The notes: generated from the sequence alone by a model not told the origin. 32,000 nt of DNA from Vibrio alginolyticus NBRC 15630 = ATCC 17749 (GCF_000354175.2 NC_022359.1:210001-242000); one strand, 5' to 3'. Positions 3 to 24,502 are shown, counted from the stretch's first letter. Program-made: numbers and translations.

Positions 3-962
3 AAGCAGAATGGTGAGCAAGACTTTAACTCTGCGTCAGCGGTATCGAGTTTTCACCTTACGGCCTCTACTTTGAACAGCGCAAACAAAGTACAAAGTCA
101 TGGTTTTGATACTGATGACCGCTCAGCTTCAGATCCGGATGCCAACTTGACCAGTACACCAGGGTTAACAGAATCGACTGATCTTGCAGCGCAAGCTCAA
201 GCTTTAACCCAGGGTATGATTACCATGGCAGAGAAGCAGGCTGAGAAACTAGGAAAAGCGTCATCTTTAATGACTGCGAGCGAAGTTAAGTCTGTTACTC
301 AAGATTCGTCTAACGCTATGTTAAACACATCATCAAAACAAGATGTGAAGCAAAGTCTGCCGACTTCATCGAGTTCGCGTTTGCCTATCTCCGGTGCTGA
401 GTTTCAAACTCTTTTGAATCAACCTGTTCAAGGGCAACCAACCGCCTCTCTACTTCAAGCACAAGCTCCTACAACACAACCTGCACATTCACCGATTGCG
501 ACGAGTCATGTTCAAGCTCAAGGCTCTGAGTGGGCAGCAGTGCGTGTTGATACCACTGCCGGAAAGTGGGGAGAGCAAATGATGCAAGTATTACATGATC
601 GCGTGACGCTCCAAGCTCAACAAAATGTACAAGAAGCAAAAATCCGCCTAGACCCACCAGACTTGGGGAAACTGGATTTACTTGTACGTGTTGAAGGTGA
701 CCGATTAAGTGTCCACATCAACGCCAATGCCGCAGCAACACGAGAAGCTTTAATGCAAGTTTCGGAACGATTGCGTACTGAGTTACAAGAGCAAAACTTC
801 GTTCATGTCGATGTCAATGTTGGCTCTGATCAAAACCAAGGTCGAAATGACCCACATGCAAACGAAGAAGACGCCAATATTTTCGCCGCACGAGAATCTG
901 GTGCATTCCAAACCACGACAACAACTAACTATTCAGAACACTGGCTAAGCACTCAAGCTTAG
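3..962 (+). CDS. fliK: Lateral-flagellar hook-length control protein FliK (LafE-like); 5' end lies outside the window
   Basis: Frame 3 has no stop from nt 3 up to the listed TTG at 72, so the CDS enters from upstream. The N-terminal part is Ser/Thr/Gln-rich and low-complexity. It is followed by the conserved FliK C-terminal block RLDPPDLGKLDLLVRVEGDRLSVHINANAAATREAL. The gene sits directly upstream of fliL-sigma28-motAB. Confidence 0.8.
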   Translation, partial: KQNGEQDFNSASAVSSFHLTASTLNSANKVQSHGFDTDDRSASDPDANLTSTPGLTESTDLAAQAQALTQGMITMAEKQAEKLGKASSLMTASEVKSVTQDSSNAMLNTSSKQDVKQSLPTSSSSRLPISGAEFQTLLNQPVQGQPTASLLQAQAPTTQPAHSPIATSHVQAQGSEWAAVRVDTTAGKWGEQMMQVLHDRVTLQAQQNVQEAKIRLDPPDLGKLDLLVRVEGDRLSVHINANAAATREALMQVSERLRTELQEQNFVHVDVNVGSDQNQGRNDPHANEEDANIFAARESGAFQTTTTTNYSEHWLSTQA

Positions 963-984
963 TGAATCTTCGAGGAAAAAGGTT

Positions 985-1485
985 ATGACCAAACAACAAA
1001 TGATCGCCCTGTTTATCGCCATGATCATCACCAGTGCCCTCGTTTCGGCCGTCACAATTATGGGCGGAATCTGGTACTTAAACAAACACGCTCAAGAGTC
1101 ACCTGACTCTGGTTCACTGATCGAAGACTCTCCACTGTCTTTTTTGGTCACAGAACAACCGACAAGTAAAGGTCCTAGCTTCCATCCTTTGGACAAAGTC
1201 GTTTTGACCGTTAAAGGCAAGAAACAGACTCACTTTGTGATGCTAGAACTGGCAATTGAGACACGCCGTCCAGAGCGTATCAAAGAGATCGATGAATACA
1301 TGCCTATGGTACAAAACTCTCTATTAAAACTGTTTAGCGACAAAACGTTTGATCAGTTACAGCAAGCGGGTGCCATCGATATTCTGCAAGACGAAGTGAA
1401 GCAAACGCTTCTACTCGCTTTTGCTAAAACAGACATCGTCCGAGAAATCGACGATGTTTTGTTGACTAAATATGTTGTGCAATAA
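985..1485 (+). CDS. fliL: Flagellar basal-body-associated protein FliL (lateral system)
   Basis: 166 aa with one N-terminal TM helix (IALFIAMIITSALVSAVTIMGGIWYL). The FliL-type C-terminal region reads HFVMLELAIE...MPMVQNSLLKLFS. An SD GAGGAAAAAGG precedes the ATG. The flagellar gene context supports the call. Confidence 0.85.
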   Translation: MTKQQMIALFIAMIITSALVSAVTIMGGIWYLNKHAQESPDSGSLIEDSPLSFLVTEQPTSKGPSFHPLDKVVLTVKGKKQTHFVMLELAIETRRPERIKEIDEYMPMVQNSLLKLFSDKTFDQLQQAGAIDILQDEVKQTLLLAFAKTDIVREIDDVLLTKYVVQ

Positions 1486-1497
1486 CGGAGCACAACC

Positions 1498-2226
1498 ATG
1501 TTAGACATGAATGTACAAGACACTTACACCACAGAAGAGGAAGTGACAACACCGTCACGACCAATTGATGAAAACGCATTGCTACAACGTCATCAGGTCA
1601 TGGTAAAACGCGTAGTTAACCAGCTGCGCGTTCATGCCACTTCTCACTGTAGTATTGAAGATATGCAGCAGATAGGCCTTATCGCTCTAGTCGAGGCTGG
1701 ACGCCGATATGGCGATGTTGACGATCCTCACTTTCCTGCTTTCGCCGTTTGTCGAGTTCGGGGAGCTATTTTAGACGAATTACGCCGACTAGATTGGCGT
1801 TCACGTAAGACTCGTCAACAAGCCCACGAGCTCAACGACGTGACTCGAGATCTCACTCGAACGTTAGGTCGAATGCCAACGGATGCCGAAATCATCCAGG
1901 CTTTAGGGACGAATGAGCAAGATTATTACAACCGCCAAAATGCCGCTCTCGCAGGCGAGATGCAAAGCCTTGACCAACTGATGGAGAGCAGCGGTGATAG
2001 CTACATTGGCGGGCAATACGATGGCATGGAACATGAACATATTCGTCGTAGTTTAGACAGTGCTTTGGGTAAATTACCTAAGCGCGATCAACTGCTCCTG
2101 ACTCTGTTCTATCAACATGAACTCAACTTACACGAAATAGCTCTGGTATTGGATCTGACACCACCTCGTATATGTCAGCTTCACAAACAAGCGCTGAAAC
2201 AACTCAACCAATTAATGTCCTCTTAG
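1498..2226 (+). CDS. lafS: FliA/sigma-28 family sigma factor of the lateral flagellar system (LafS)
   Basis: 242 aa. Sigma-70 region 2 reads IGLIALVEAGRRYG...FAVCRVRGAILDELR. The region 4 HTH reads LNLHEIALVLDLTPPRICQLHKQALKQL. It lies between fliL and motA, as in the Vibrio parahaemolyticus laf cluster. Confidence 0.9.
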   Translation: MLDMNVQDTYTTEEEVTTPSRPIDENALLQRHQVMVKRVVNQLRVHATSHCSIEDMQQIGLIALVEAGRRYGDVDDPHFPAFAVCRVRGAILDELRRLDWRSRKTRQQAHELNDVTRDLTRTLGRMPTDAEIIQALGTNEQDYYNRQNAALAGEMQSLDQLMESSGDSYIGGQYDGMEHEHIRRSLDSALGKLPKRDQLLLTLFYQHELNLHEIALVLDLTPPRICQLHKQALKQLNQLMSS

Positions 2227-2236
2227 GAGTCACAAG

Positions 2237-3094
2237 ATGCAAAAGTTTTTTGGAGTGCTCACTATCCTGGTGTGCGTCTTCGGTGGATATATGTGGGCCG
2301 GTGGTAGCTTAGGTGCTATCTGGCAGCCAGCCGAATTCCTTATCATTATTGGCGCCGCTGCTGGTTCTTTGATCATCGGTAATCCGCCTCATGTACTGAA
2401 AGAAATGCGTCGCCAAGTGCCAGCGACCATTAAAGGTCCAACAGAAGAGCATGAGTACTACATGGAATTAATGGCACTACTCAACAACTTGCTAGAGACA
2501 GCGAGAAACCGCGGATACAAGTTTCTGGATTCTCATATTGAGGCTCCGGAGCAAAGCTCTATGTTCCTCGCTTACCCGACGATCGCAGAAGATCATCGCC
2601 TAATTTCTTTCATTACTGACAATTTACGTTTAATGGCAATGGGACAGATGTCGCCTCATGAATTAGAGGGACTGCTAGAGCAAGAAATCGAAGCAATACA
2701 GAACGAAATGCTTTTACCTTCACGCTCACTACAGCGTACAGCAGAAGCACTACCTGGCTTCGGTATTCTTGCAGCAGTTGGTGGCATCATTATCACCATG
2801 CAAGCTATTGATGGCTCAATCGCTATGATTGGTTATCACGTTGCGGCAGCTCTCGTTGGTACATTCATTGGTATTTTCGGTTGTTACTGTGGCTTAGATC
2901 CACTAAGTAACGCCATGGCTCAGCGAGTAAAACGTAATATGACTGCTTTTGAGTGCGTTCGTGCAACCTTGGTTGCCTACGTAGCGAAAAAGCCGACATT
3001 GCTCGCCATTGACGCTGGTCGTAAACATATTCAGCTAGACATCAAACCAACATTCAACCAAATGGAGAAGTGGTTAGCTGAACAGGAGGGATAA
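2237..3094 (+). CDS. lafT: Flagellar stator protein MotA (lateral, LafT)
   Basis: 285 aa multi-TM protein. The MotA/TolQ/ExbB-type C-terminal channel segment reads [17 protein letters not shown]...[16 protein letters not shown]. An SD AGGAG is present. Its TAA overlaps the motB ATG (TAATG at 3092-3096). Confidence 0.9.
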
Positions 3095-4089
3095 TGCAAA
3101 AACAAGAGCATGTAGTGTTCAAACGTGCCAAAGTATACAGCCATGATGAGTCGTCTCATGGCGGCGCGTGGAAAGTCGCGTTTGCTGACTTCATGATCGC
3201 CCTAATGGCGCTGTTTCTTGTACTTTGGGTTATGCAGGTGGTAGACAAAGAAGAGCGTAAAGCGATTGTTGCCCACTTGCATAGTTCAAGCGTATTCGAC
3301 AAGAGTTACGGCAACCCATTTGATACGTCACAAAGTATTTCTCCTATCGACTTGGCACAGGACTCTTCTGTGCCAAGTAAACACAACTCCAACCATGTGG
3401 TAAGCTCTTACTTCAAAGGTGATGGGGATGGACCAGAAATTGATTCTTTGATTCCTGGTAACTTCGATACTCAAGAGCAACTTGCCGCACTAGCGAAAGT
3501 AATTGAGCAAATGACTGCCCAAATTAATGCGCAGGGAAATGTAAACGTCACGGTGACACCACAAGGTTTGCGTATCGTCCTTCAAGATGATTACAAACAG
3601 CATATGTTCAGCCGTGGTGGTGCAGAACTTACTCCTTTTTTTGAAGATTTACTGCTCGCACTAGCACCTGTATTTCATCGTGTTAACAACCCTCTGATCA
3701 TCAGCGGACACACAGATGCAATTCCATTTAAAAAGCGTTTTGGTCGTCAATCTAACTGGGCGTTATCAGCCTCTCGAGCAGACGTAGCAAGAAATACGTT
3801 AGTTGAAGGCGGTATGCCGGATGATAGAGTAATGCAGGTAACGGGTATGTCAGATAGAGCGCTGCTTAATCCTGATGAGCCAGATTCTAGCGAAAACCGT
3901 CGTATTGAGCTGTTTGTTTTAACGACTCCTGCCGCTAAAGTGCTTGAGACCCTTTTTGGCAACCACCAAGAAAGCGAACTGCAAAAAGCGAAAGATAAGG
4001 CTGAATTCAACCAACCAGTCATTCGTCAAGAAGTCATCAATTACTCCGGCGATACCGCCACCAGCGAAGTAAAAATTCAAGAATTATAA
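3094..4089 (+). CDS. lafU: Flagellar stator protein MotB with OmpA-like peptidoglycan-binding domain (lateral, LafU)
   Basis: 331 aa. The N-terminal plug/TM segment [20 protein letters not shown] contains the conserved Asp. The C-terminal OmpA-like motif reads [16 protein letters not shown]...NRRIELFV. It is translationally coupled to motA. Confidence 0.9.
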
Positions 4090-4679: not shown

Positions 4680-5057
4680 TTAACCTAGTACATACTCACT
4701 AACCATACGGTTGAAAGAAATCAAATCAAACGAGCCTTTAATTTCAAAACGCACTCTTCCCACCTCACTCATGAAGAACTCGATTTCACAATCCAAATCA
4801 AAAGTACCAGAGGTCTCGATAGAAAATGCATTGATCTTACTGTAAGGCAAAGAAGTGTAATCCACTTTTGAGCCGGTAATCCCTTGCACATTTGCCGCTA
4901 TCACTCGCTTGTTCGTAAACACCACTTGGTCACGAACTGTTTTAAAAGCAGCGAAAATAGTCTCACCATCAATCAAGAACTTAAGGAAGTCTTCTCTGGC
5001 ATTAGAAACGTCAATGGGCTTAAGCTTAAATACAGAGGAATTGTCGAAATCAATCAT
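4680..5057 (-). CDS. Bacterial pleckstrin-homology (bPH, YokE-like) domain protein
   Basis: 125 aa. The pattern GETIFAAFKTVRDQVVFTNKRVIAANVQGITGSKVDYTSLPYSKINAFSIETSG..FEIKG is typical of the YokE/bPH_1 family. An SD AAGGA is present. Confidence 0.75.
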   Translation of the reverse strand: MIDFDNSSVFKLKPIDVSNAREDFLKFLIDGETIFAAFKTVRDQVVFTNKRVIAANVQGITGSKVDYTSLPYSKINAFSIETSGTFDLDCEIEFFMSEVGRVRFEIKGSFDLISFNRMVSEYVLG

Positions 5058-5169
5058 AATTAGTCCTTTGAGTGGGCGTTAGAACGAATTATCAACGTAT
5101 CAGATAGCACCACTTTTGCCTACTCGCAACGCACGTTTCTGCTTGATTCGCCCAACAACGAAGCGTCAC

Positions 5170-5385
5170 TCACTTCCACCCTTGCATCCATTGCTCAGAG
5201 TCTTTTAGGTCTTGCCAGTTCATCTCTCGGTCGCGTTTACTCATGACTGCCTCGATGACACATCTCACAACGTTACCATCTTCATCTAGTTCCATTTCCG
5301 TCACAACAAAATGCTTCTCTTTGTTTTTAGGTGAAATTGCCGTCCATTTACTGTGCAATAGTTTCTTAGGGTGGATTCTGTTCAT
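5170..5385 (-). CDS. TIGR02450-family tryptophan-rich small protein
   Basis: 71 aa. The signature KKLLHSKWTA..KEKHFVVTE....G.V..C.IEAV.S.R...NW.DLKD...W..GW is characteristic of this family. Confidence 0.75.
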   Translation of the reverse strand: MNRIHPKKLLHSKWTAISPKNKEKHFVVTEMELDEDGNVVRCVIEAVMSKRDREMNWQDLKDSEQWMQGWK

Positions 5386-5523
5386 CGCATTGTACCAATT
5401 TAACTACCATGTTGATGCATACGACTGAATACCAAGAGAGAATCAGATTTTGTTTTTGCAAACCTACAAAAGATAAAACCGCAAAAGAGATCACTCCCTT
5501 TCGCGGCCCTAACTACAACCCGA

Positions 5524-5997
5524 CTAGGTCTTCTGACCATTCAATCGAGGGTTTAAGTACTGACTTTGGAGCAACTGTAGCCCTTTACCGACCAGAACAA
5601 TCACTACCGCGCCAATCAGGACAGGCGTGAAGAGAAAACTCCATCCCTGCCCAGACGCCATGATCAAAATTGGATTTGCACCCGCAGGTGGATGAGTGGT
5701 CTTCGTAATCAGCATCGCAGAAACACCTAGCCCCGTCGCAATCGCGAGCGTGACCGGCGTGACGTCAACATACTGGCTAAACGCAATACCGATAGATGCC
5801 GTGATGAAGTGACCAATGATCACGTTTTTTGGTTGAGCGAGAGGGCTGCTAGGCACCCCAAACACCAGTACTGCGGTAGCACCAAATGGTGCCATCAGGA
5901 GTACAACCTCCGTCAGTGATACCTCAGCGTAGGACAATACGCCAATAGCCAACGTAGCGCCAAGCCCGGCAACCAACGATAAAATTAAATTATTCAT
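5524..5997 (-). CDS. HPP family integral membrane protein
   Basis: Contains the signature KTTHPPAGANPIL within a 4-5 TM protein. The ORF track starts at GTG 6003. ATG 5997 (MNNLIL...) is preceded by the SD GAGGTG and is preferred. Confidence 0.85.
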   Translation of the reverse strand: MNNLILSLVAGLGATLAIGVLSYAEVSLTEVVLLMAPFGATAVLVFGVPSSPLAQPKNVIIGHFITASIGIAFSQYVDVTPVTLAIATGLGVSAMLITKTTHPPAGANPILIMASGQGWSFLFTPVLIGAVVIVLVGKGLQLLQSQYLNPRLNGQKT

Positions 5998-6009
5998 AAA
6001 CACCTCAAA

Positions 6010-6053
6010 GTAGACCGAATTGTCTACAAAATAAAATAGACAAATCTGTCTAC
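6010..6053. promoter_or_regulatory. Two tandem inverted repeats (G)TAGAC-N6-GTCTA(C); candidate TetR operators in the HPP/tetR divergent region
   Basis: GTAGACcgaattGTCTAC occupies 6010-6027 and aTAGACaaatctGTCTAc occupies 6036-6053. The TAGAC starts are 26 bp apart. They fill almost the whole gap between the HPP start (5997) and the tetR start (6096). Confidence 0.5.
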
Positions 6054-6095
6054 CTTTGTCAATATGTGTTTATGGAACTTTTTGAGGACATAGTT

Positions 6096-6641
6096 ATGAA
6101 CAAAAAGAAACAGTTATTGATCGACACAGCTTTGTCACTGTTTTACAAACAAGGCATAAACTCTATTGGCATCAATGAAGTTCTCAATGTTTCCGGCGTG
6201 GCTAAACGCACGCTATATAACCATTTTGAGAGCAAAGAAGCGCTTATCATCGCCGCATTAGAACAACGCCACCAAATATTTATGGAATGGTTGGAGGAAA
6301 AGCTTTCTTCAGCACAAACGAGCGCGGAGGTGATCGATCAGTTATTTACAGCACTCAACGGCTGGTTTCATGGCTCTGAAGAAAAGTTGGGCGAGTTTCG
6401 CGGTTGCTTTTTCATCAATACGTCCGCGGAATTCAGTGACGACAGTGGCGAGATCGCAACGTATTGCCGCTACCATAAGCAGCAAGTCAGAGAGCTAATT
6501 CAACGCTATCTCAAATCAGACAACGCTGCATTACTCGATGCCATTTGCATCATGAAAGAGGGCGCGATCACTACCGCTTACATGACGAAAGAGTACGACA
6601 ACGTCACGAAAAAATGCGTGACCATTTTGCACAAGCTGTAA
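6096..6641 (+). CDS. TetR/AcrR family transcriptional regulator
   Basis: The N-terminal TetR HTH reads LIDTALSLFYKQGINSIGINEVLNVSGVAKRTLYNHFESKEALI. ATG 6096 has the SD GAGGA 7 nt upstream. The GTG 6066 extension in the ORF track is unlikely to be translated. Confidence 0.9.
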   Translation: MNKKKQLLIDTALSLFYKQGINSIGINEVLNVSGVAKRTLYNHFESKEALIIAALEQRHQIFMEWLEEKLSSAQTSAEVIDQLFTALNGWFHGSEEKLGEFRGCFFINTSAEFSDDSGEIATYCRYHKQQVRELIQRYLKSDNAALLDAICIMKEGAITTAYMTKEYDNVTKKCVTILHKL

Positions 6642-6682: not shown

Positions 6683-6710
6683 AAAGGCACCAGTCGGTGC
6701 CTTTTGTTTT
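6683..6710. terminator. Bidirectional rho-independent terminator between convergent tetR and GRE genes
   Basis: AAAGGCACC, loop agtc, GGTGCCTTT, then TGTTTT on the plus strand. The minus strand has TTTGGTTT after the same stem. Confidence 0.7.
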
Positions 6711-6725
6711 AGTTAGTCAGTGCAC

Positions 6726-9149
6726 TTACAGCTCGTGCTCAGTACGTGCGATGATGTCGTCTTGAGCATCTGGTGATAGCGCTGTGAAGAAGGCTGAGTA
6801 GCCTGCGACTCGCACAACAAGATCACGATATTGCTCCGGGTTCTTCTTCGCAGCTAGCAAGGTCTCACGAGAGACGATATTGTACTGAACATGCCAGCCT
6901 TTGTGGTGGTTGAAGAAGGTACGAATCAACATAGAAAGCTTGAGCTTATCCCCTTCAGACTCAACCGCTGCCGGACTTAATTTCTGGTTAAGCAGCACGC
7001 CACCCAAGATCTTATTCGCTTGGATCTTACCCACTGAGTTATACACTGCGGTTGGACCTAAACGGTCTGAGCCAGATGACGGGCTTGCACCTTCTGCCAA
7101 TGGTGTTTTCGCTTTACGACCATCTGGCGTTGCCATGGTTGAAGCACCGAATGGGACGTTTGCCGAGATACTTGATGTACCTGCGTAGTAACCGCCGCCA
7201 ATTGGACCACGCCCATGACGCGTATTAACGAACTGTTCTAGCTCATCAATGTACACTTGGTAAGCGTCTGCCAGTAGTTGGTCTACTGCGTCATCATCGT
7301 TACCGTATTTTGGTGCAAAGTTGATAAGACGTTGGCGAAGCTGTTCGTTCTCCATGCCGTCGAAATCTTCTGCCAATGCTTTTGCCAACTCTGGTTGGGT
7401 GATTTGCGCGTCATCGAAAACAAGGTGCTTGATGGCAGCTAGGCTGTTACCCAAGTTTGCGATACCGACTTGCAAACCAGATACCCAATCGTATTTCGCG
7501 CCGCCTTCTTTCACGGTTTTACCGCGAGCCAAACAGTCATCCACCAGCGTTGAACAGAAGATGTCTTGTGCCTGCTGTTCAAGCACGCTGTCCACTACCG
7601 TATCAATCTCAATCGATTTACGGGTGTAGTAGCGGATTTGCTCTGCCCAAGAAGCTGTCACTTGCTCAAAGTTCTCAAAGTTGCCTTTTGCTAATGACTT
7701 ATCGTGCGGCAAGAAAGCTTTACCCGTTGTTGCATCCACACCTTCGTTCAATGAAGCGAGCAGGATACGAGCGAAGTTAATGAAGCTCATGCCCGTACAA
7801 CGGTAACCCCATTTGCCCGGAACCGCCGTCTCGATACAGCCGATAGATGCGTAGTTGTAAGCGTCTTCTTTCTCTACACCAAGCTTGATGAATTCAGGAA
7901 TAACAACCTCATCGTTGTTAAAAGCTGGCATGCCGAAGCCGCACTTAATCACCTCGATACAGCCCATTAAGAACTCTTGGTTCAAACCTTCGTGGTAACG
8001 CACACTCAAGTTAGGTTGCGTCGAACGTAACTGACCACAAGATTCCAGAATCGCCCAAGAAAGGGGATTCACTGCGTCTTCTGGCTCACCCTTTTCATTC
8101 AACTTCTGGCCGCCGATACACACGTTTTGGTACAGCGGAGAACCTGCCGATGCTTTCGAGTGCGCACCAGAGCGAATCTTGTTTACTTCAAGCAGCTTCA
8201 ACCAGCAGCTTTGTAAAAGCTCAAGTGCGAAGCCTTTTTCAAGCGTGCCGTTTTCGATATCACGAACATAGAATTCGTTGAGGAACTGGTCCATACGACC
8301 GAAAGAAACCGAGTGACCGTTCGATTCGATTTGTAGCATCAACTGAACGAAGTAGCTTAATTGCAATGCTTGCCAGAAGTTTTCTGGTGCGTAGCTTGCT
8401 ACATGACGACAGTTTGCCGCAATGCTTTCTAACTCAGCTTTGCGCAGCGGGCGCGTCTCTTCTAACGCCATTTTTGCTGCTAATTCAGCGTAGCTCACCA
8501 TGTGATCTTGAATGGCAAGCAGTACGATTTCGACTGATTTATAGAACTGCTCTTTCTTCAAGCCTTCAAAGGTCGAAACATCATTGTTAGCACGGTGCTG
8601 ACGAACATCCTCTAACAAACCGTTCATGCCTAGCTTCAAGATTTTCTCGTTGTCCACCGCTAGGTGCGCGTCACCCGAAGTCATGTTGCCTTCAGCTTTA
8701 ATGATGGTGCTGGCTAAGATCTCTTGCTGCTCATCAGTAAACAAACCATAACAACGGTCTTGAACGGTTTTACCGCGCCAGTACGGCGTGATGCTGTGGA
8801 TGCTTTGCTTATCTTCTTCAGTGACCGCAAAGCCTGCACCAGGACGGTCGGCTAGCTCATCAATTTCCGCTTCAATCCAACGCACTGTGTATTCTGGGAA
8901 AATAGGCGCAGCGCGCACTTTGCTCGCTTGGTTACCGACGATCAACTCATCGTGTTTAATCCAAATCGTACGAGTGCGTAAGTGCTCTTGCAGTGCCAGC
9001 GCACGTTGGACAATCACAGGTTTGTCTTCGTTTGCTTGATAAGCACGAGTGTATGCCTCTGCACGCTCGGTACAGACAGGTGGCGTTACGATATTTACCA
9101 GTGCCGATTTGTGCGCTTTGATACGCTCAGGAAGGTAATTTAGGTCCAT
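6726..9149 (-). CDS. ybiW: Glycyl radical enzyme, YbiW/PflD (dehydratase-type, not PFL) family
   Basis: 807 aa. The C-terminal glycyl-radical fingerprint RDLVVRVAGYSAFFTALSPDAQDDIIARTEH places Gly783 at nt 6801-6803. The catalytic loop SIGCIETAVPG has a single Cys438 (nt 7836-7838) with Glu440 at +2, not the Cys-Cys of pyruvate formate-lyase. The N-terminus ERIKAHKSALVNIVTPPVCTERA and the block WIKHDELIVGNQASKVRAAPIFPEYT match my memory of E. coli YbiW. The activase lies 2 nt upstream. Confidence 0.9.
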   Translation of the reverse strand: MDLNYLPERIKAHKSALVNIVTPPVCTERAEAYTRAYQANEDKPVIVQRALALQEHLRTRTIWIKHDELIVGNQASKVRAAPIFPEYTVRWIEAEIDELADRPGAGFAVTEEDKQSIHSITPYWRGKTVQDRCYGLFTDEQQEILASTIIKAEGNMTSGDAHLAVDNEKILKLGMNGLLEDVRQHRANNDVSTFEGLKKEQFYKSVEIVLLAIQDHMVSYAELAAKMALEETRPLRKAELESIAANCRHVASYAPENFWQALQLSYFVQLMLQIESNGHSVSFGRMDQFLNEFYVRDIENGTLEKGFALELLQSCWLKLLEVNKIRSGAHSKASAGSPLYQNVCIGGQKLNEKGEPEDAVNPLSWAILESCGQLRSTQPNLSVRYHEGLNQEFLMGCIEVIKCGFGMPAFNNDEVVIPEFIKLGVEKEDAYNYASIGCIETAVPGKWGYRCTGMSFINFARILLASLNEGVDATTGKAFLPHDKSLAKGNFENFEQVTASWAEQIRYYTRKSIEIDTVVDSVLEQQAQDIFCSTLVDDCLARGKTVKEGGAKYDWVSGLQVGIANLGNSLAAIKHLVFDDAQITQPELAKALAEDFDGMENEQLRQRLINFAPKYGNDDDAVDQLLADAYQVYIDELEQFVNTRHGRGPIGGGYYAGTSSISANVPFGASTMATPDGRKAKTPLAEGASPSSGSDRLGPTAVYNSVGKIQANKILGGVLLNQKLSPAAVESEGDKLKLSMLIRTFFNHHKGWHVQYNIVSRETLLAAKKNPEQYRDLVVRVAGYSAFFTALSPDAQDDIIARTEHEL

Positions 9150-9151
9150 AG

Positions 9152-10093
9152 TTAACCTCTTACAATCACGTTAAGTTGGGTGTTTTCGCTTGCGTATTGC
9201 ATGGCGCTTTCTAGCAGTTCTGGTTTGTTTAATGGCTTGTCAGAACACTCGTAAGGCATATCGAGCAAACGGTATTTATTGATGCCGAGCGTGTGGTACG
9301 GCAGCAAGTGAAGTTCTTGGCAGCTTTCTAGTGAAGCCGCAAAATCGATGATGTCTTTCAACTCTTCGATGGTGTCATTGAACCCCGGCACCACGGGAAC
9401 GCGAATCACAATGCATTTCGCGATAGGTGCCAGTTTTCGGAAATTGTCTTTGATGCGTTTTAGTGAACCTTTCGCCCAGTTAAGAAACTTCTCTTCATCG
9501 GTGTGTTTTAAATCCGCCAACCAGCAATCAATATGCGGCGCGGCTTTTTCGACGTTCTTCCACGGCACATGCATGCACGATTCAATGGCGGTAGAGACTT
9601 GGTTGTCATGCAGACGCTGTGCGAGTTCTGCTACCAAATCAGCTTGCATGAGTGGCTCACCACCGGAGAAGGTCACGCCACCTTGGCTTTGGTCGTAGAA
9701 AGGTTTGTCCTTCATTAAGGTGTCGAACAACATGTCTGATTTCGCCTCTTCACCGCAGACAGTCAGTGCTTGCGTAGGACAGACGTCTCGCAGCGCGATC
9801 AGTTGGTCTTCTTTGATGGCTTTGCGATTGATGATGATCTGGTTGTCGATACATTGAATACCATCACCTACCGTTTCACTATCCGCTGTAGATTGAGTTG
9901 TGGCTTGATAAGCAGAAACGCACAGCTGGCAATCTTCCATGCAGCTTCGCTGATCAAACAACAGTGAATGCTTTTCGCTGCGACTTTCTGGGTTTTGACA
10001 CCAAGGGCAAGACAAGCTGCATCCTTTAAGAAAAAGAATGGAACGAATGCCATCACCATCATGGGTAGAGAATCGTTGGATATTGAAATACAT
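9152..10093 (-). CDS. ybiY: Glycyl-radical-enzyme activating enzyme (radical SAM)
   Basis: 313 aa. The N-terminal GDGIRSILFLKGCSLSCPWCQNPE gives C25-x3-C29-x2-C32. A Cys-containing ferredoxin-like insert spans residues 51-113. GGVTFSGGEPL is the SAM-binding motif. It sits directly upstream of the GRE on the same strand. Confidence 0.9.
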   Translation of the reverse strand: MYFNIQRFSTHDGDGIRSILFLKGCSLSCPWCQNPESRSEKHSLLFDQRSCMEDCQLCVSAYQATTQSTADSETVGDGIQCIDNQIIINRKAIKEDQLIALRDVCPTQALTVCGEEAKSDMLFDTLMKDKPFYDQSQGGVTFSGGEPLMQADLVAELAQRLHDNQVSTAIESCMHVPWKNVEKAAPHIDCWLADLKHTDEEKFLNWAKGSLKRIKDNFRKLAPIAKCIVIRVPVVPGFNDTIEELKDIIDFAASLESCQELHLLPYHTLGINKYRLLDMPYECSDKPLNKPELLESAMQYASENTQLNVIVRG

Positions 10094-10265
10094 CTCTGCT
10101 TGCCTCTTGGTTTGTGCTACTGCTGTGTACCTAATTCGTTTCTTTTGCTCGTTGAGTCTTATGAACAGCTTTTGTGTTTTCTAACTGAAAGCTTCATTTG
10201 AGCGTTTACAAGTTTCACTTGAGTTTCATTTAATGAAATTATTATGGTTTCAAATGAAATTTCAA

Positions 10266-10279
10266 TTGATCAAAATCAA
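10266..10279. promoter_or_regulatory. Perfect FNR-type box TTGAT-N4-ATCAA, with a candidate class II promoter for fsa
   Basis: TTGATcaaaATCAA occupies 10266-10279. A -10-like TATAGT lies at 10302-10307. If the TSS is near 10314, the box centre is at -41.5. The fsa ATG is at 10350. Confidence 0.6.
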
Positions 10280-10349
10280 GATCTCGTTCGATTGTCAGAT
10301 CTATAGTGATCCCATCATCAAAACGAAGATTTTGTTTAAGGTAGAAACC

Positions 10350-11024
10350 ATGATTGAACTTTATTTAGATACTGCTGATGTGGCAGAAGTAAAACGCTTT
10401 AACCAGTGCCTACCGCTAAAAGGCGTGACGACAAACCCAAGCATTTTGGCGAAGTCAAAGCAGGGACTGAATGAAACCCTCGCAGGTATGCAAGAAGCAC
10501 TTGGCGGTACACCTCGCTTTCACGCTCAAGTCGTGAGTTCAACCGTCGAAGGCATGGTGGCAGAAGCGCGCCAATTGAATGAATTGCCTTACGATATGGT
10601 GGTAAAAGTGCCAGCAACAGAAACCGGCTTAGCGGCAATTAAGCTAATGAAAAAAGAGGGAATTCAGGTTCTTGCTACCGCTATCTATTCCGCTCAACAG
10701 GGTTTCCTTGCGGCACTGTGCGGTGCAGACTACCTAGCACCTTACGTAAACCGCATTGATGCGATGAACGGCAACGGTGTTGAAGTGGTCGCGGATCTTC
10801 AATTGTTGCTCGATCAAAACCAACTACCAGCGAAGATTTTGGCAGCCAGCTTCAAGAACACTCAACAAGCGATGGAGGTGATGAAACTGGGCATCGAAGC
10901 CATTACATTACCAACTGATGTGGCGGCACAAATGTTCGCACATCCAGCAGTAAAACCGGCGGTTGAGCAGTTCGATAAAGACTGGAAAGAGACGTTCGGC
11001 GATAAACTTTCATTTGAAAGCTAA
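10350..11024 (+). CDS. fsaA: Fructose-6-phosphate aldolase (transaldolase-fold, FSA/TalC family)
   Basis: 224 aa from ATG 10350, with an SD AAGGTAG. The N-terminus MIELYLDTADVAEVKRF....LKGVTTNPSIL and the Schiff-base Lys context MVVKVPAT are typical of FSA. The 39-codon extension from 10233 in the ORF track runs through the promoter region. The gene is divergent from the GRE operon, as in E. coli fsaA/ybiY-ybiW. Confidence 0.9.
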   Translation: MIELYLDTADVAEVKRFNQCLPLKGVTTNPSILAKSKQGLNETLAGMQEALGGTPRFHAQVVSSTVEGMVAEARQLNELPYDMVVKVPATETGLAAIKLMKKEGIQVLATAIYSAQQGFLAALCGADYLAPYVNRIDAMNGNGVEVVADLQLLLDQNQLPAKILAASFKNTQQAMEVMKLGIEAITLPTDVAAQMFAHPAVKPAVEQFDKDWKETFGDKLSFES

Positions 11025-11058
11025 TTAAAAGTAGCAGCTAGACGTCTCAATGAATAAT

Positions 11059-11115
11059 AAAGGGAATCTTAACTCACCCTGTGCGCCGGTGAACTTAAGG
11101 TTCCCTTTTGTATTT
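11059..11115. terminator. Long hairpin terminator between convergent fsa and DUF2809/cre operon
   Basis: AAAGGGAATCTTAA (11059-11072) pairs with TTAAGGTTCCCTTT (11095-11108) with one G-U pair and a 22-nt loop. TTTTG follows on the plus strand and TTTATTATT on the minus strand. Confidence 0.55.
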
Positions 11116-11264: not shown

Positions 11265-11693
11265 TCATTTCTTTTCCATCCACCAACACAGTAGACCTCC
11301 GATGCAGTAAGCCAGCATATCTTTCCAATCAAATGTGGCGCCCAAAATTACAGCCAGAGGGGATGAAGATTCGATACCAAACCAAACTGCGACCTGTAAC
11401 AGTTGCCCTAACTCAACAGCAAACGCAATCAACACCACCAGTGAAACCAGCCAGTTAACAGGCATGGAGAACAAACTTGCAAGAAAGTAGTAGAGCCAAA
11501 CCACAACGAGAACATCACCAAATGTCGGACGAATAAAGCTGTCTCGAACATAGAGCGCAATAACGACCAATGCGATAAAACACACCAAGCTTTTCAGTCC
11601 ATTTTTTGCAGAAAATCGCAGGTGGATAGCGGATGTCTCTTCCACCATATCACTTGGCTGACCAGTGAGAGTTTCTCGCTTAAACGTCTTCAT
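11265..11693 (-). CDS. DUF2809-like small integral membrane protein
   Basis: Four hydrophobic segments. The motifs RDSFIRPTFGDVLVVVWLYYF and FDWKDMLAYCIGGLL resemble DUF2809. The start is uncertain: GTG 11708, ATG 11693 or ATG 11648. The first two overlap the creD stop. Confidence 0.6.
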   Translation of the reverse strand: MKTFKRETLTGQPSDMVEETSAIHLRFSAKNGLKSLVCFIALVVIALYVRDSFIRPTFGDVLVVVWLYYFLASLFSMPVNWLVSLVVLIAFAVELGQLLQVAVWFGIESSSPLAVILGATFDWKDMLAYCIGGLLCWWMEKK

Positions 11694-13020
11694 GATTCGC
11701 CTTTGCACTTTCTTCCGCTTTATTATTTCGTGCGTACCAGTCGATGTTGCGTGTAATGACCATAGTGAAACTCAAAATCGCGAAACACAGTAATGCCCCC
11801 ATGACCAATGCGTAGCTTTCTGCTTGTAGCAAGCCAAACAGTAATCCGTAGAGAGTGAGCAAACACGCTCCGAAGATCGCGCCGTGTTTGGTGTTGCTCA
11901 ACATACCGCTCACGTAAACACTTAAAAGCCCCGTCGATGCGACTGCTGACACCACATATGCCCAGTTAAAGCCGAGGTGTTCACTCATCGAAATCAGCAA
12001 TAGATAGAAAAGCGCTAAAGCCAGACCAATAAAGCCGTATTGTACTGGGTGAACCGGACGCGCTTGGAACAGCTCCAGTAAGAAGAAACTCGCAAATACT
12101 AATGTGATAACCAACAGTGAATAGTTCACAGCTCGGTGAGATTTCAAATAGTGGTCCACGGGATCAATCAAATCTACGCCCATTTGTCGCTGTTCAAGCT
12201 CGTGACAAGCGTGATTCGATGACAAACAGCTTTGGAACAGCTGCGCAATATTGGTAGAGAAGTTGTTGCTCGCCCACTGTGCGTTAAATCCATCTTCAGA
12301 TACTTCTGATGACACCGGTAAGTAATCACCGATAAAGCTTGGATGCGCCCAAGTTGAAGAGAGTTCAACCGTTGTTTGACTGCCAATTGGTGTGACTTGA
12401 AGCTGTCCCATCCCTTGTAGCAAGAAGTTAAGATCGAAAGCCAAAGGTTGTGCTGGGTTTAGGTCTGCAAGTGTCAGATCACTGTGGAAGCCTTGTGGTA
12501 ACTGATTTAACCCCGTTCCCGGTGCGACTTCGATGTTAGCACTCTCCATGGTCATGTCATCCAAACGAATTAATCCGCGGCTATCTTCAATGCCAACCAC
12601 TAGGCTCATGTTGTCAATATCAAGCCCCTGCAACGCCGCGAGATCGTCTGCATCGAAAGTGCCTTTCAGTGCCACTTGTGCTTTGTATAAACGCGCACGG
12701 TATATGCCTCGGTACTTTTCAAAACTGTCCAGATTCGCGCTCATATCAAAAGTGCTAGGTAAAAGAAATTTACGACGCTCTTTAATCTGTACTTTGTCAT
12801 CTCGGTAACTGGTTTCGGTGTAGTTAACCATGATGAATGGACCAATGATGCGCTGCTCGCCGCTGCTGCTGCGTGCGATGTCGTTTCTGACTTCATCTTG
12901 GCGATATGAGCGCTCTGAGATCAGCCCTGTGACCATTGAAAGCGGGATTTGCAATAAGACAAACAAAAACAGCACGAAGGCGAACTTCGTGCCGAGTTGG
13001 TTATTGAGGATCTTTTTCAT
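11680..13020 (-). CDS. creD: Inner-membrane protein CreD
   Basis: 446 aa. The N-terminal TM plus LISERSYRQDEV motif, a large periplasmic domain and a 5-TM C-terminal block fit the CreD family layout. It follows creBC. Confidence 0.9.
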   Translation of the reverse strand: MKKILNNQLGTKFAFVLFLFVLLQIPLSMVTGLISERSYRQDEVRNDIARSSSGEQRIIGPFIMVNYTETSYRDDKVQIKERRKFLLPSTFDMSANLDSFEKYRGIYRARLYKAQVALKGTFDADDLAALQGLDIDNMSLVVGIEDSRGLIRLDDMTMESANIEVAPGTGLNQLPQGFHSDLTLADLNPAQPLAFDLNFLLQGMGQLQVTPIGSQTTVELSSTWAHPSFIGDYLPVSSEVSEDGFNAQWASNNFSTNIAQLFQSCLSSNHACHELEQRQMGVDLIDPVDHYLKSHRAVNYSLLVITLVFASFFLLELFQARPVHPVQYGFIGLALALFYLLLISMSEHLGFNWAYVVSAVASTGLLSVYVSGMLSNTKHGAIFGACLLTLYGLLFGLLQAESYALVMGALLCFAILSFTMVITRNIDWYARNNKAEESAKANHEDV

Positions 13021-13095
13021 GTTTCATTCTCCATTTGCTGATGGGAGTAATCTAAATCAGCAATTTGGAGAACGAATGGAGCTAATGTGGAGTTT

Positions 13096-14541
13096 CTATG
13101 GAGTTGGTAAAATCAGGGTCACTTTCACGCCAGAATCGACGTTTTCGACTTGCAACTGACCTTTGTGCAGCTTGATCACTTGCTCAACAAAATTAAGCCC
13201 AAGCCCAGTGCTCTTAACGCCATTTTCCCGAGCGAGGGAGTAGAAGCGCTCGGTCAAACGCGACATCGCGTAGTCGGGAATGTGAGGACCTGAATTGAAA
13301 ATCGACAAGCACACCTTCTCTTTTGTGACCTCCGCTTTCCATTCAATGCATCCCTCTGAATCAACAAAATCCAGCGCATTGTCCATCAAGTTAAAAACGG
13401 CTTGTTTCAGTAAGAAGGCATCACCAAGCACGGCAAGATGATCATCAATTTGGATGTTGGCAGTGACCGACTTTGCACTCAAACGCGCATCCGCCGATTC
13501 AACCACCTCATTGACCATTTGTTTTAGCGAGATAGCTTCGACTTGTTCTAGCTCAGGGCGCTTTTCAAGACGAGCAAGTTCGAGCAACTTATCAATCAAT
13601 GACTGCATGCGGTCGCTTTCTCGCTCAATGTTGCCAGCAAAGCGCGTGACCTTTTCTTCAGGCAACGGCATTTGCAATATTTCACTCGCGCCTTTAATCG
13701 CTGATAACGGGCTTTTCAGCTCATGAGTCAGCGTCTGTACGTACTCTTCCACATATTGTTTACCATCGAGCTGATTGCGCATTTTCTCCAATGCGTCGCT
13801 TAGCGTGCCGTACTCATAAAAGATACGAAATGTCGGCTTAGAGACCTTTTCACCCTCACCCATTTTGGTCGCGTAGTCTTCTAGCTTGTTCAGTGCCGAG
13901 TGAATTCGCCAAGCAAACAATGCCCCTGCCAATAGCACTAAACCACTCATCCATACCATCCAAAACAGCACATTGCGTTTAGAAAGATCGATGAAGGGTT
14001 GTACTGAGCGATTGGATTTGGCTACCGTCACGCTGCCAATGATTTCACCTTTGTGGTAAATGGGCGCAGCCACGTGCATAACGGTTGAGAGCGGATCTTT
14101 CGGGTCTTCGATGGTACTGCGCGCGCCGTATTGACCACGCAACGTGAGATAAACATCGTTCCATTGCGAGTAGTCTTTGCCTACGTCTTGCTGCCAAGAA
14201 TCCGCAATCACAATGCCTTGTTTATCGGTGATGTAAATTCGATGGTTAATCGCTTTTTTACCGATTTCCCAAATGCGCGCTTGAGGCTCTCGCTGTCCAT
14301 AAGCCGTTAATAGTTTGGAGAAGCGACTCTCAGACAACTTGTCATTCGCGACGTCTTCTTCCGCCAATACCGCGAGTAAGTTCGCCATATCCACTAGCGT
14401 CTCTTCGGTGGTTTGGCGCACGGTTGGCTTAAGTTCTTGGACAACCGTTTTGCTCACCATGTAAGCCGTCATCCCGACTAAGATGAAGTAGAGAAAAAAC
14501 AGTCTGAGTCCAAGCGGGATCTTCGGCCAGCGATTCATCAT
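13096..14541 (-). CDS. creC: Two-component sensor histidine kinase CreC
   Basis: 481 aa. The periplasmic block DYSQWNDVYLTLRGQYGARSTIEDPKDPLSTVMHVAAPI closely matches E. coli CreC as I remember it. The H-box is LTHELKSPLSAI and the ATPase G-box is STGLGLNFV. The start overlaps the creB stop (ATGA). Confidence 0.9.
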   Translation of the reverse strand: MMNRWPKIPLGLRLFFLYFILVGMTAYMVSKTVVQELKPTVRQTTEETLVDMANLLAVLAEEDVANDKLSESRFSKLLTAYGQREPQARIWEIGKKAINHRIYITDKQGIVIADSWQQDVGKDYSQWNDVYLTLRGQYGARSTIEDPKDPLSTVMHVAAPIYHKGEIIGSVTVAKSNRSVQPFIDLSKRNVLFWMVWMSGLVLLAGALFAWRIHSALNKLEDYATKMGEGEKVSKPTFRIFYEYGTLSDALEKMRNQLDGKQYVEEYVQTLTHELKSPLSAIKGASEILQMPLPEEKVTRFAGNIERESDRMQSLIDKLLELARLEKRPELEQVEAISLKQMVNEVVESADARLSAKSVTANIQIDDHLAVLGDAFLLKQAVFNLMDNALDFVDSEGCIEWKAEVTKEKVCLSIFNSGPHIPDYAMSRLTERFYSLARENGVKSTGLGLNFVEQVIKLHKGQLQVENVDSGVKVTLILPTP

Positions 14542-15248
14542 TCACCTTTTATGCAGTAAAAGTAACCAAAGCCACGCTTGGTACAGATGCGTTCAGACAT
14601 CTCAAACGGCTTCAACTTATGGCGAATGGCTTTGATGTGGGTATCGATATTGCGCTCGTACGCAGCTTCCGGCGCCATGTCAGCAGCGATCATAAGTTGC
14701 TCTCGACTCAATACATTGGAAGAGACGGAAATCAGCCTATCGAGGATCTTAAATTCCACCGCAGTTAACCCAAGCATTTGTCCACCGACACCGTAGTCGA
14801 AGTTCTGCGCAACTAAATCTTGACTAAATTGAGGTTGTTCTGGAACAGCTACAGGCTCTGGTTTGTGCTCCATCATTGGCGCTTTAGCTTTGATTCGAAG
14901 TTTAATGCGAGCCAACATTTCGCGCGGGCTAAATGGCTTAGTCACGTAATCATCCGCGCCAATTTCCAAACCGACTACGCGGTCAATTTCATCGCTTCTT
15001 GCGGTGAGAAAGATTATGGGAATATCAGAAAACTCACGGATGGTTTTGCATAATTCAAAACCATTGCCATCCGGTAAGCCTACGTCTAAGACAAGTAACG
15101 CTGCGGAGTTGTGCTGCAAAAAAGCTAAGCCCTCTCCTGCTGTTGCAAACCACTCTGCGTGGTAGCCATCCATCTCTAATACATGAATCAGGTTCTCTGC
15201 GATAGCAGATTCATCCTCGATAATAAGGACGGTGGGTTGTTCGCTCAA
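14538..15248 (-). CDS. creB: Two-component response regulator CreB (OmpR family)
   Basis: The receiver domain reads VLIIEDE...LVLDVGLPDGNGFELC and is followed by a winged-helix C-terminus. There is no ATG or GTG upstream of the receiver. TTG 15248 has the SD GAGG 8 nt upstream and gives 236 aa. The ORF-track start, TTG 15332, has no SD. Confidence 0.85.
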   Translation of the reverse strand: MSEQPTVLIIEDESAIAENLIHVLEMDGYHAEWFATAGEGLAFLQHNSAALLVLDVGLPDGNGFELCKTIREFSDIPIIFLTARSDEIDRVVGLEIGADDYVTKPFSPREMLARIKLRIKAKAPMMEHKPEPVAVPEQPQFSQDLVAQNFDYGVGGQMLGLTAVEFKILDRLISVSSNVLSREQLMIAADMAPEAAYERNIDTHIKAIRHKLKPFEMSERICTKRGFGYFYCIKGE

Positions 15249-15507
15249 TGTCTTAGCCTCATTGACGGTGTTTATCTTTATGTTGGTATTATCACTTAAT
15301 TTGGGGCCAAGGCTAGTGGATTGATGCAGCAAAGGCGCAGTTCGTGGATAATACTAATCAAACACACTTCTATTCAGCATAATAAATTTATCACTTAGAT
15401 TAATGAGTCACCACAATTGTGAATACAATGATTTCAACCATTGATATGAACAGTGTTCATTTTAAACTCAAGTTATCAATTCGATTTTATTTAAAGGACA
15501 GTCACTG

Positions 15508-22848: not shown

Positions 22849-22858
22849 AGGTGGGGAT

Positions 22859-24502
22859 ATGATGCTTCCAAAACTAACCAAACCAAGCCTCGCCATACTT
22901 TCTTTGCTCGGACTCAGTGCGTGTACCACGGTAGGACCAGATTATGTTCATCCAAAGCAGGCGCCACTGCCAAGTGACTGGTCGGTGCAAAAAGCAGCCA
23001 AAGATACGCAGCAATCAGAGCAACAGCTACAACAATGGTGGCAGCAATTTAATGACTCAACTCTTAATCAGCTGGTTGAGTTGGCGAGCAAACAAAACCT
23101 CGATTTAGAAGCCGCAGGGCTACGAATTGTCCAAGCACGTTCATTGCTTGGTATTTCGACTGGCTTGCAATACCCACAAGTTCAAACCGTGTCAGGAAAC
23201 CTAGCGCGTGCCTACGTAAATGATCAGGGCGTGAATAACGCCACTTTGTCGTTTGATGCTGCTTGGGAAATGGATGTTTGGGGCAAGTATGCTCGCGGTA
23301 TTGAGTCGGCAGAAGCGGGTTACTACGCATCCATCGCATCGTATCACGACATCATGGTCACCATAACCGCCGAAGTGGCGCGCAATTACATCAACTATCG
23401 CACATTCCAAGAACGTATTTTGCTGTCTCGCCGCAATATCGAGATTCAAGAGCGTGTCGTCCGCATTACACAGGTGCAGTTCGACTCTGGCAACGTTACA
23501 GAATTGGACGTTCAACAAGCTAAAAACCAACTCTACACCACCAAAGCAGCGCTACCGAGCCTCGAAGTGGCAATGAAGCAATCACGTACTGTGTTGGCTT
23601 TGCTACTGGGTCTGTTACCAGAAGAAGTAGATGGACTGCTACAGTCGGATGGGATGCACAAGCAAATCGCTGAGTACGAAGCCCAGTTCAAATCAACGGG
23701 CAGAAAATCGGCGCTATCGGGCACCGACGAGCGCTCCATTGTGCCACGTCCACCGCTTTTGGATACGCAAGTGGATGCTAACTTAGTGATGCGACGTCCG
23801 GATTTGCAAGTCTCTGAGATGCAAGCTCGCGCGCAAAGTGCGCAGATTGGCGTGGCAGAAACCGCTCTGTACCCAAGCTTTTCGTTGTTCGGTTCCATCG
23901 GTATCGACAGTACGGTTCCCGATGGCAGCAGTTTCAGTTTTAGCGATTCGCTCACCATGGTGGTTGGCCCAACGTTCAGTTGGAACATTTTCCAATACGG
24001 ACGCGTGAAAAATAACATTCGTTTCGAAGATGCTCGCTTCCAAGAAACGCTGACGAACTACAACAAAAAGGTACTGCAAGCCGTTAATGAAGTCACCAAT
24101 GCAATCGAAGCGTATGACCTGTATTTGCAGCAAAAAGATTTACGCTTGCAATCGGTCAACTCTTCCATTCGTGCGTTCAACATATCCATGACACAGTACG
24201 AAAACGGACAAATTTCATTCGAACGTCTGCTTAACTCGGTAGAAAAAATGACCCGCGCAGAAGACAGCTACGCAACGATCAAAGGTAATGTTGCGAACCA
24301 AGTTGTCGCGCTCTACAAAGCCCTCGGTGGAGGCTGGCAAACCCAAACAGGCAAGCCTTTCATCAGTGAATCGATTGCCACGCAGATGACAGAGCGCACT
24401 GACTGGGGAAGTTATTTAAATGAAGAAAACCGCGTATTGCCGCCTTTGCGACTCGAAACTCCGGCTGAGACCAGTGATGAAAACAAAACGGAGGATCGGT
24501 AA
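22859..24502 (+). CDS. Efflux outer-membrane factor lipoprotein, NodT family
   Basis: Lipobox LGLSAC followed by TTVGPDY. WWQQFNDSTLNQLV and LYKALGGGW are hallmark NodT/OprM motifs. Confidence 0.9.
   Translation: MMLPKLTKPSLAILSLLGLSACTTVGPDYVHPKQAPLPSDWSVQKAAKDTQQSEQQLQQWWQQFNDSTLNQLVELASKQNLDLEAAGLRIVQARSLLGISTGLQYPQVQTVSGNLARAYVNDQGVNNATLSFDAAWEMDVWGKYARGIESAEAGYYASIASYHDIMVTITAEVARNYINYRTFQERILLSRRNIEIQERVVRITQVQFDSGNVTELDVQQAKNQLYTTKAALPSLEVAMKQSRTVLALLLGLLPEEVDGLLQSDGMHKQIAEYEAQFKSTGRKSALSGTDERSIVPRPPLLDTQVDANLVMRRPDLQVSEMQARAQSAQIGVAETALYPSFSLFGSIGIDSTVPDGSSFSFSDSLTMVVGPTFSWNIFQYGRVKNNIRFEDARFQETLTNYNKKVLQAVNEVTNAIEAYDLYLQQKDLRLQSVNSSIRAFNISMTQYENGQISFERLLNSVEKMTRAEDSYATIKGNVANQVVALYKALGGGWQTQTGKPFISESIATQMTERTDWGSYLNEENRVLPPLRLETPAETSDENKTEDR

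Follow-up and report, generated by a model that had tools for sequence, protein, structure and literature searches.

Three genes occupy positions 6726 to 11024 of a 32,000-nucleotide stretch of the genome of Vibrio alginolyticus NBRC 15630 = ATCC 17749 (NC_022359.1:210001-242000), the whole of which is called the window here. They encode a glycyl radical enzyme (GRE), its radical-SAM activase and, on the opposite strand, an aldolase of the fructose-6-phosphate aldolase (FSA) family. The trio most probably comprises the Vibrio harveyi-clade orthologues of ybiW, ybiY and fsaA of Escherichia coli, which would make it the 1,5-anhydroglucitol branch of anhydroglycolysis. The orthology, motifs, synteny and regulatory-site conservation described below were obtained in the present analysis, in which the window was compared with 80 loci, one per different species, encoding close relatives of the window GRE. 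These loci span Vibrio, Photobacterium, Corallincola, Neiella, Psychromonas, Aeromonas and many Enterobacterales. The cassette consists of the following parts.

6726..9149, minus strand: GRE, ybiW orthologue, predicted 1,5-anhydroglucitol-6-phosphate C-O lyase/isomerase; 807 aa; Cys438, Glu440, Gly783
9152..10093, minus strand: radical-SAM activase of the GRE, ybiY orthologue; 313 aa; CX3CX2C motif with Cys25/29/32; ferredoxin-like Cys51/55/58/105
10094..10349, no strand assigned: shared divergent control region between activase and fsa; 256 bp
10350..11024, plus strand: fsa, fructose-6-phosphate aldolase, predicted 1-deoxyfructose-6-phosphate aldolase of the pathway; 224 aa

The glycyl radical enzyme and its partners

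The GRE matches the PFL-like (PF02901, 689.6 bits) and Gly_radical (PF01228, 117.4 bits) models of Pfam. Its glycyl loop, RVAGYSAFF, occupies residues 780-788 (RVAGY, 780-784), with Gly783 as the predicted radical site. The thiyl loop, IGCIET, has a single cysteine, Cys438, together with Glu440, and the segment IGCIETAV aligns with IGCIETAV of E. coli YbiW, where the pair is Cys441/Glu443. A second GCIE, at residues 396-399, is coincidental. The Cys loop, the Gly loop and the neighboring conserved segments are near-identical between the two enzymes, and the overall protein identity is 71% over the full length, with 2 gap positions only. Identity to PflD is 37%. When the GRE is scored against solved structures, E. 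coli YbiW (PDB 8ID7/8YJN) gives 1305 bits; the next distinct enzyme is the B12-independent glycerol dehydratase (576 bits), and PflD gives 481. At the DNA level, ybiW-ybiY of every one of the 5426 complete E. coli genomes is about 70% identical to the GRE and activase genes. Because the identity is full-length, the YbiW score so exceeds that of PflD, and the gene order is the same, the GRE is by sequence a clear YbiW orthologue with conserved synteny.

As a proxy for the other residues that bind substrate and phosphate in the 8ID7 complex, we used the 492 alignment columns that are invariant in Aeromonas and enteric YbiW, of which 268 also differ from PflD. The window GRE retains 450 of the 492 and, among the YbiW-specific columns, 237 of the 268 (88%).

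Many annotations ("formate C-acetyltransferase") imply that the GRE is a paralogue of pyruvate or 2-ketobutyrate formate-lyase, and legacy database names, such as that of PDB 6XS4 ("Formate C-acetyltransferase") and NF007437, point the same way. The loop, however, is the single-Cys GCIE rather than Cys-Cys, and the score against the pyruvate formate-lyase model TIGR01255 is 152.8 bits where the cut-off is 994.2, so that this assignment is scarcely credible. An initial annotation made from the DNA had also remarked that the loop is not the Cys-Cys of pyruvate formate-lyase. That annotation had listed the 807-residue GRE with RVAGYSAFF and GCIE (Cys438/Glu440), the activase 2 nt upstream on the same strand, the divergent 224-residue FSA, a 256-bp region with a perfect FNR box, the E. 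coli counterparts, and the lack of an adjacent transporter, phosphotransferase system (PTS) component or kinase. All of these were found again in the sequence. The two E. coli arrangements it had named were also seen: ybiW-ybiY lies divergent to fsa, and pflD-pflC is found near fsaB.

The activase (310 bits against TIGR02494) has 51% identity with YbiY of E. coli, and every one of the cluster cysteines is invariant. Its gene lies upstream of the GRE gene on the same strand, with a 2-nt gap from its stop codon to the GRE ATG. Around residues 60-85 the protein has an insertion of about 13 residues relative to YbiY (SAYQATTQSTADSETVGDGIQC), situated in the ferredoxin-like cluster domain and bringing an extra cysteine, Cys81. 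The aldolase scores 355.7 bits against NF009296 (cut-off 306), and its identity is 53% with FsaA and 51% with FsaB. D7, Q60, K86, T110, Y132, R135 and S167 of the window FSA are invariant with both; their E. coli equivalents, D6, Q59, K85, T109, Y131, R134 and S166, are what we take to be the FSA-type catalytic residues.

The fsa start is placed at the ATG at 10350 (MIELYLDTAD), in agreement with E. coli MELYLDT, whereas the open reading frame as listed opens at 10233. The in-frame upstream ATG (10233-10349) would add 39 codons, spanning the FNR box and the -10 hexamer of fsa itself. Public gene calls differ in this respect: among the three closest relatives of the cassette that carry the regulator gene yciT (L085-L087), the product is 256 aa in L085 and L087, some calls using the upstream ATG, and 224 aa in L086. 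The short form of 224 aa is almost certainly correct, matching as it does the FSA of E. coli.

The activase gene adjoins the GRE gene in 78 of the 80 species loci, and a divergent fsa is present in 73. Co-occurrence of GRE and fsa genes across genomes, which the initial annotation had made a condition of its reading, thus holds over loci whose flanks vary. The exceptions include ybiY-ybiW pairs without an adjacent fsa in Klebsiella and Raoultella (L058, L070, L071, L075, L078) and in Vibrio albus (L023). In the two Klebsiella loci inspected (L070 and L075), moeA-moeB directly abut the activase gene.

The linkage bears on another reading, in which the GRE would be a genuine 1,2-eliminase (a dehydratase of glycerol, propanediol or another diol) and the FSA next to it would be functionally unrelated, serving dihydroxyacetone and fructose-6-phosphate metabolism. 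The GRE shares with the eliminases glycerol dehydratase, CutC, HypD and IslA/HpsG both the CxE Cys loop and the TIGR01774 subfamily (PFL2/glycerol dehydratase; 1126 bits). The best structure other than YbiW is a dehydratase, and FSA enzymes act on dihydroxyacetone too (PMC6643234). However, YbiW scores more than twice as high as any dehydratase, and the equivalog models of the characterised GRE eliminases and decarboxylases all fall far under their cut-offs on the window GRE. Moreover, the GRE-fsa linkage persists in the 73 species despite changing flanks, with FNR and YciT-type sites shared between the two genes. The eliminase assignment is therefore very unlikely.

With respect to E. coli YbiW-YbiY/FsaA, the window trio is alike in protein lengths, in the CxE loop, RVAGY and CX3CX2C motifs, in the divergent gene order, and in having an FNR-like box and a TTTC-N4-GAAA palindrome equally spaced in the intergenic region. 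Unlike E. coli, the window has no downstream ybiV (or ybiU), its intergenic region measures 256 bp where that of E. coli has about 127 bp, the predicted activase leader is about 120 nt longer, and the activase has the insertion described above. The host is also a marine bacterium, in which the cassette occupies a mosaic part of chromosome 2.

Proposed pathway and substrate

The primary description of the pathway is reportedly that of Ma et al. (JACS, 2024, doi 10.1021/jacs.4c07718), who are said to have named it anhydroglycolysis in a title calling it widespread. The pathway, an oxygen-sensitive radical route that brings 1,5-anhydroglucitol-6-phosphate into glycolysis, was thus already published in 2024. 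The window locus is an ordinary, well-conserved orthologue. Substrate, product and mechanism are borrowed here from the E. coli literature. In E. coli, the ring C-O bond is opened by YbiW in 1,5-anhydroglucitol-6-phosphate and by PflD in 1,5-anhydromannitol-6-phosphate; the product is 1-deoxyfructose-6-phosphate in either case (PMC13450708 section 5.7). Aldolases split this product into glyceraldehyde-3-phosphate and hydroxyacetone (PMC13450708 section 5.7; PMC12441222 section 5.1). In the mechanism proposed for YbiW, the thiyl cysteine takes the C2 hydrogen while the loop glutamate deprotonates the C2 hydroxyl (PMC13450708 section 5.7). The substrates are phosphorylated by a PTS, and the route supports growth of E. 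coli and other gut bacteria on 1,5-anhydroglucitol (PMC12441222). The YbiW reaction is an isomerisation, of a "GRE isomerase" class, and not an elimination (PMC13450708), which separates it from the 1,2-eliminases considered above.

By analogy, 1,5-anhydroglucitol in V. alginolyticus would be imported and phosphorylated to the 6-phosphate by a PTS encoded outside the window. The activase would set the radical on Gly783 of the GRE, from where it would move to Cys438, which would then abstract the C2 hydrogen of the substrate. With deprotonation of the C2 hydroxyl by Glu440, the ring C-O bond would break to yield 1-deoxyfructose-6-phosphate. The FSA, through a Schiff base on Lys86, would cleave this compound to glyceraldehyde-3-phosphate and hydroxyacetone.

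The initial annotation had put forward a radical C-O cleavage giving a deoxy-ketose phosphate that the FSA splits into these same two products, which is the published E. coli function, and its suggestion of a 1,5-anhydrohexitol-6-phosphate substrate agrees with what is reported for E. coli YbiW and PflD (PMC13450708, PMC12441222). The term "dehydratase-type", which it had used for the GRE, fits the sequence subfamily (TIGR01774) but not the chemistry, because the reaction is a redox-neutral ring-opening isomerisation without dehydration. The earlier reading is thus supported, and it is not new, since the function of E. coli YbiW has been published.

Because of the 71% identity and the conserved synteny, we infer with considerable confidence that the Vibrio enzyme shares the exact substrate of E. 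coli YbiW. Several points weigh against the explanation as a whole. The window GRE departs from Aeromonas and enteric YbiW at 42 positions that do not vary among the latter, and a few of the changes (G148T, Y291N, R295V, D395M and K575H, in alignment numbering) are non-conservative. The substrate-contacting residues that were compared are only the Cys and the Glu named in PMC13450708. A PTS, a kinase, a YbiV-like phosphatase, a hydroxyacetone reductase and yciT are all absent from the 32-kb window. The searched literature yielded neither biochemical or genetic data on the Vibrio proteins nor Vibrio work on anhydroglucitol. Finally, the transcription starts used below are predictions from hexamers only.

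Some of these points could also reflect the same fold and chemistry acting on another substrate in marine vibrios, for example 1,5-anhydromannitol-6-phosphate or some other phosphate of an anhydro- or deoxy-sugar that comes from algal or host glycans. The neighborhood would fit such a specialization, being unlike that of E. coli in its lack of ybiV and, in some close relatives, having a GH129 glycosidase beside yciT. Nevertheless, full-length identity of this degree combined with three-gene synteny usually means the same function, and 88% of the columns that discriminate YbiW from PflD are kept. The distance from PflD is also evident in the PflD-type model NF007437, against which the GRE scores 577.5 bits (cut-off 1109). 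E. coli PflD-PflC/FsaB, the 1,5-anhydromannitol-6-phosphate branch, resembles the window system in enzyme class, product and downstream aldolase step. Unlike the window GRE, PflD has 765 aa and is encoded amid the PTS genes frwCBD/ptsA, with gldA nearby, none of which occurs in the window. A different substrate therefore seems improbable, and 1,5-anhydroglucitol-6-phosphate is the one we retain.

The initial annotation had suggested looking for PTS or kinase genes that recur near the cassette. None turned up: no PTS, kinase or sugar transporter adjoins the cassette in the window, and no transporter, kinase or reductase is linked to it in any clade examined. The missing entry system is not peculiar to this organism, since the E. 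coli ybiW locus also lacks one. The families that recur in more than 7 of 30 non-E. coli loci, on which recurrent neighbors were counted, are only the GRE, the activase, the FSA and the DeoR-family regulator YciT. The phosphatase gene ybiV lies downstream of ybiW in most Enterobacteriaceae and is absent from all Vibrio and Aeromonas loci as well as from the window.

FNR box, predicted divergent promoters and probable YciT operators

The 256-bp control region carries the following elements, of which the promoters and operators are predictions.

10212..10238, no strand assigned: TTTCAC-N6-TTTCATTTAATGAAA, second operator-like element, covering the predicted ybiY start; conserved in Vibrio
10248..10259, no strand assigned: palindrome TTTCAAATGAAA (TTTC-N4-GAAA), probable YciT (DeoR-family) operator, between the ybiY -35 and -10
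10265..10238, minus strand: predicted ybiY-ybiW promoter; -35 TTGAAA (10265..10260), 16-nt spacer, -10 AATAAT (10243..10238)
10266..10279, no strand assigned: perfect FNR box TTGATCAAAATCAA; center 10272.5
10302..10307, plus strand: predicted fsa -10 hexamer TATAGT, 22 bp after the FNR box; implied start near 10314

The FNR box is the only TTGAT-N4-ATCAA in the window, where shuffled sequence gives an expectation of 0.04. Footprinting over 75 orthologous intergenic regions recovered the box, with 0-2 mismatches, in all 75. Its distance to the fsa start codon is 61-80 bp in 73 of them; to the activase start it varies from 55 to 180 bp. The -10 hexamer of fsa is TATAGT or TATATT in all 21 aligned intergenic regions of the Vibrionaceae type. 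On the other side, the predicted ybiY-ybiW promoter (10 of 12 matches in a promoter scan) abuts the FNR box and implies a start near 10231. The two -10 hexamers are symmetric, each 32 bp from the center of the box. This geometry would place a single FNR site at -41.5, as in class II activation, with respect to both divergent promoters, and oxygen could gate the expression of both units through one FNR dimer bound 41.5 bp from either predicted start. FNR dependence is thus our prediction for Vibrio; in E. coli, the ybiYW promoter fires anaerobically only and carries an unassigned activator footprint (bioRxiv 10.1101/2025.05.13.653802), and fsaA rises on a shift to anaerobiosis (PMC6643234). A riboswitch or attenuator in the predicted activase leader of about 140 nt is not supported, because its fold is no more stable than those of shuffles (z = +1.09); an Rfam scan of the whole window also gave no match.

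A repressor probably acts as well. The TTTC-N4-GAAA palindrome has its center 19 bp from that of the FNR box in Vibrio, Aeromonas and Enterobacteriaceae, its counterparts being CTTTCGAATGAAAG in E. coli and CTTTCATTCGAAAG in Aeromonas. The binding of YciT is again taken from E. coli, where YciT peaks were seen at ybiY and fsaA by chromatin immunoprecipitation with exonuclease (ChIP-exo), and both genes were differentially expressed in a yciT deletion strain (PMC8464067). That work is cited in another study as showing upregulation of ybiY and ybiW, and in the same study YciT was pulled down on the E. coli ybiY promoter, overlapping the RNA polymerase footprint (bioRxiv 10.1101/2025.05.13.653802). 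In 35 loci of the main set, and additionally in L085-L087, a yciT orthologue lies directly downstream of the GRE gene. The products in Vibrionaceae and Aeromonas, named YciT by NCBI, are 49-58% identical to E. coli YciT. In 19 of 20 loci of the Vibrionaceae type the palindrome is also present just upstream of yciT, which indicates autoregulation and supports the assignment of the operator to YciT. A YciT-like DeoR repressor would thus act at the ybiY core promoter, by way of the TTTC-N4-GAAA operators that overlie it.

Sugar phosphates are the usual signals for regulators of the DeoR family. It is therefore plausible that YciT repression is relieved by an intermediate of the pathway, on top of activation by FNR.

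A different protein, CreB, was considered for the second operator-like element, which contains a possible "cre-tag" (TTCAC-N6-TTCAT, 10213-10228) and is near creBCD. This candidate was rejected, as the TTTCAC-N6-TTTCA arrangement is also found upstream of yciT in related loci without cre genes. Another exact TTTC-N4-GAAA (TTTCATTTGAAA) is present at 11008-11019, within the last codons of fsa; the 2 exact copies in 32 kb compare with 1.3 expected, which is within chance. A search of the E. coli locus showed no CTTTC-N4-GAAAG close to ybiV, so the ybiV-proximal YciT peak is left unexplained by the motif.

In the yciT-bearing Vibrionaceae (L085:5926-6000; L003, L005-L009, L013-L020), the 75-bp spacer between the GRE gene and yciT has TTTCAC-N6-TTTCAAATGAAA and, after it, a GC-rich hairpin whose loop contains TATAAT (AAGAGGCACTATAATAGTGCCTCTT). 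It looks like a GRE terminator overlapping an operator-controlled yciT promoter. Convergent to yciT in the closest yciT-bearing relatives is a gene for a GH129-family glycoside hydrolase (L085:6799-9057), possibly a hint at a natural carbohydrate source and possibly a coincidence.

The four-gene cassette, with fsa divergent from ybiY-ybiW-yciT, is that of most Vibrio, Photobacterium, Aeromonas, Rahnella, Franconibacter and Buttiauxella. The window has the same three enzyme genes and control region; unlike that arrangement, the window and its harveyi-clade relatives (V. harveyi, L002; L004; V. diabolicus, L007; V. rotiferianus, L010) have no yciT beside the cassette, and none occurs anywhere in the 32-kb window. 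Homology to the yciT-bearing cassettes stops at the GRE stop codon, after which the window has a different terminator hairpin. The operators are intact in the window, the divergence being too shallow to infer selection on them. One may speculate that the harveyi clade lost the linked yciT while keeping the operators and the FNR box, so that one FNR dimer would switch on both units anaerobically in a natural "derepressed" anhydroglycolysis, perhaps tuned to anhydro-sugars from the breakdown of algal or host glycogen; we hold this scenario to be possible but doubtful.

Surroundings of the cassette and significance

Homology to the closest relatives ends at 6683-6723 on one side of the cassette and at 11020-11115 on the other. 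The cassettes of L085-L087 have 96% DNA identity to window positions 6723-11023 in quite different surroundings. The gene trio being kept while the flanks vary, the cassette is self-contained. More broadly, it stands as a separate block, 93-96% identical in DNA, with flanks that vary among the close relatives L002-L010 and L085-L087. In the locus labelled Photobacterium jeanii (L003), the copy is 94% identical to that of the window in DNA and 99% in GRE protein, which suggests either recent horizontal transfer or a mislabelled assembly. The left edge is marked by one further feature, found in a terminator scan.

6683..6704, no strand assigned: GC-rich hairpin, likely a bidirectional terminator, between the convergent GRE and TetR genes

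Past this terminator, positions 4680-6641 encode a bacterial PH-domain protein, an HPP-family membrane protein and a TetR-family regulator. These genes are syntenic with those of V. diabolicus and not of V. harveyi, and do not track with the cassette. Farther out (72-4089) is a flagellar set, comprising a FliK-like hook-length protein, FliL, a sigma-70-family (sigma-28-like) factor, MotA and MotB, in keeping with the lateral flagellar cluster that harveyi-clade vibrios carry on chromosome 2. Beside fsa, at 11265-15332, lie DUF2809, creD and genes for a creC-like histidine kinase and a creB-like response regulator. This cre block is an insertion or a deletion, as it is absent from that position in V. 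rotiferianus and V. diabolicus. A putative tripartite efflux system at 20674-25608 consists of a FUSC-family inner-membrane protein, an outer-membrane OEP protein and an HlyD-type fusion protein, and is followed by an ion-channel gene and an AI-2E-family transporter gene (25613-27452).

As a sequence-only rediscovery of a known pathway, the finding in the window is of little weight in itself. It does support the name 1,5-anhydroglucitol-6-phosphate lyase for the many Vibrio genes whose annotation still reads "formate C-acetyltransferase" or "glycyl radical protein". The added value is modest and lies in a testable model of control, with FNR as anaerobic activator and YciT, whose gene is linked in many genera, as substrate-responsive repressor. 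The model joins two E. coli regulatory studies made without knowledge of the function of the pathway (PMC8464067; bioRxiv 10.1101/2025.05.13.653802), and the analysis flags in the harveyi clade a group that has lost the linked regulator. Should the speculative scenario of a derepressed harveyi clade hold, the conserved FNR box would also explain the activator footprint that is unassigned at the ybiYW promoter of E. coli.

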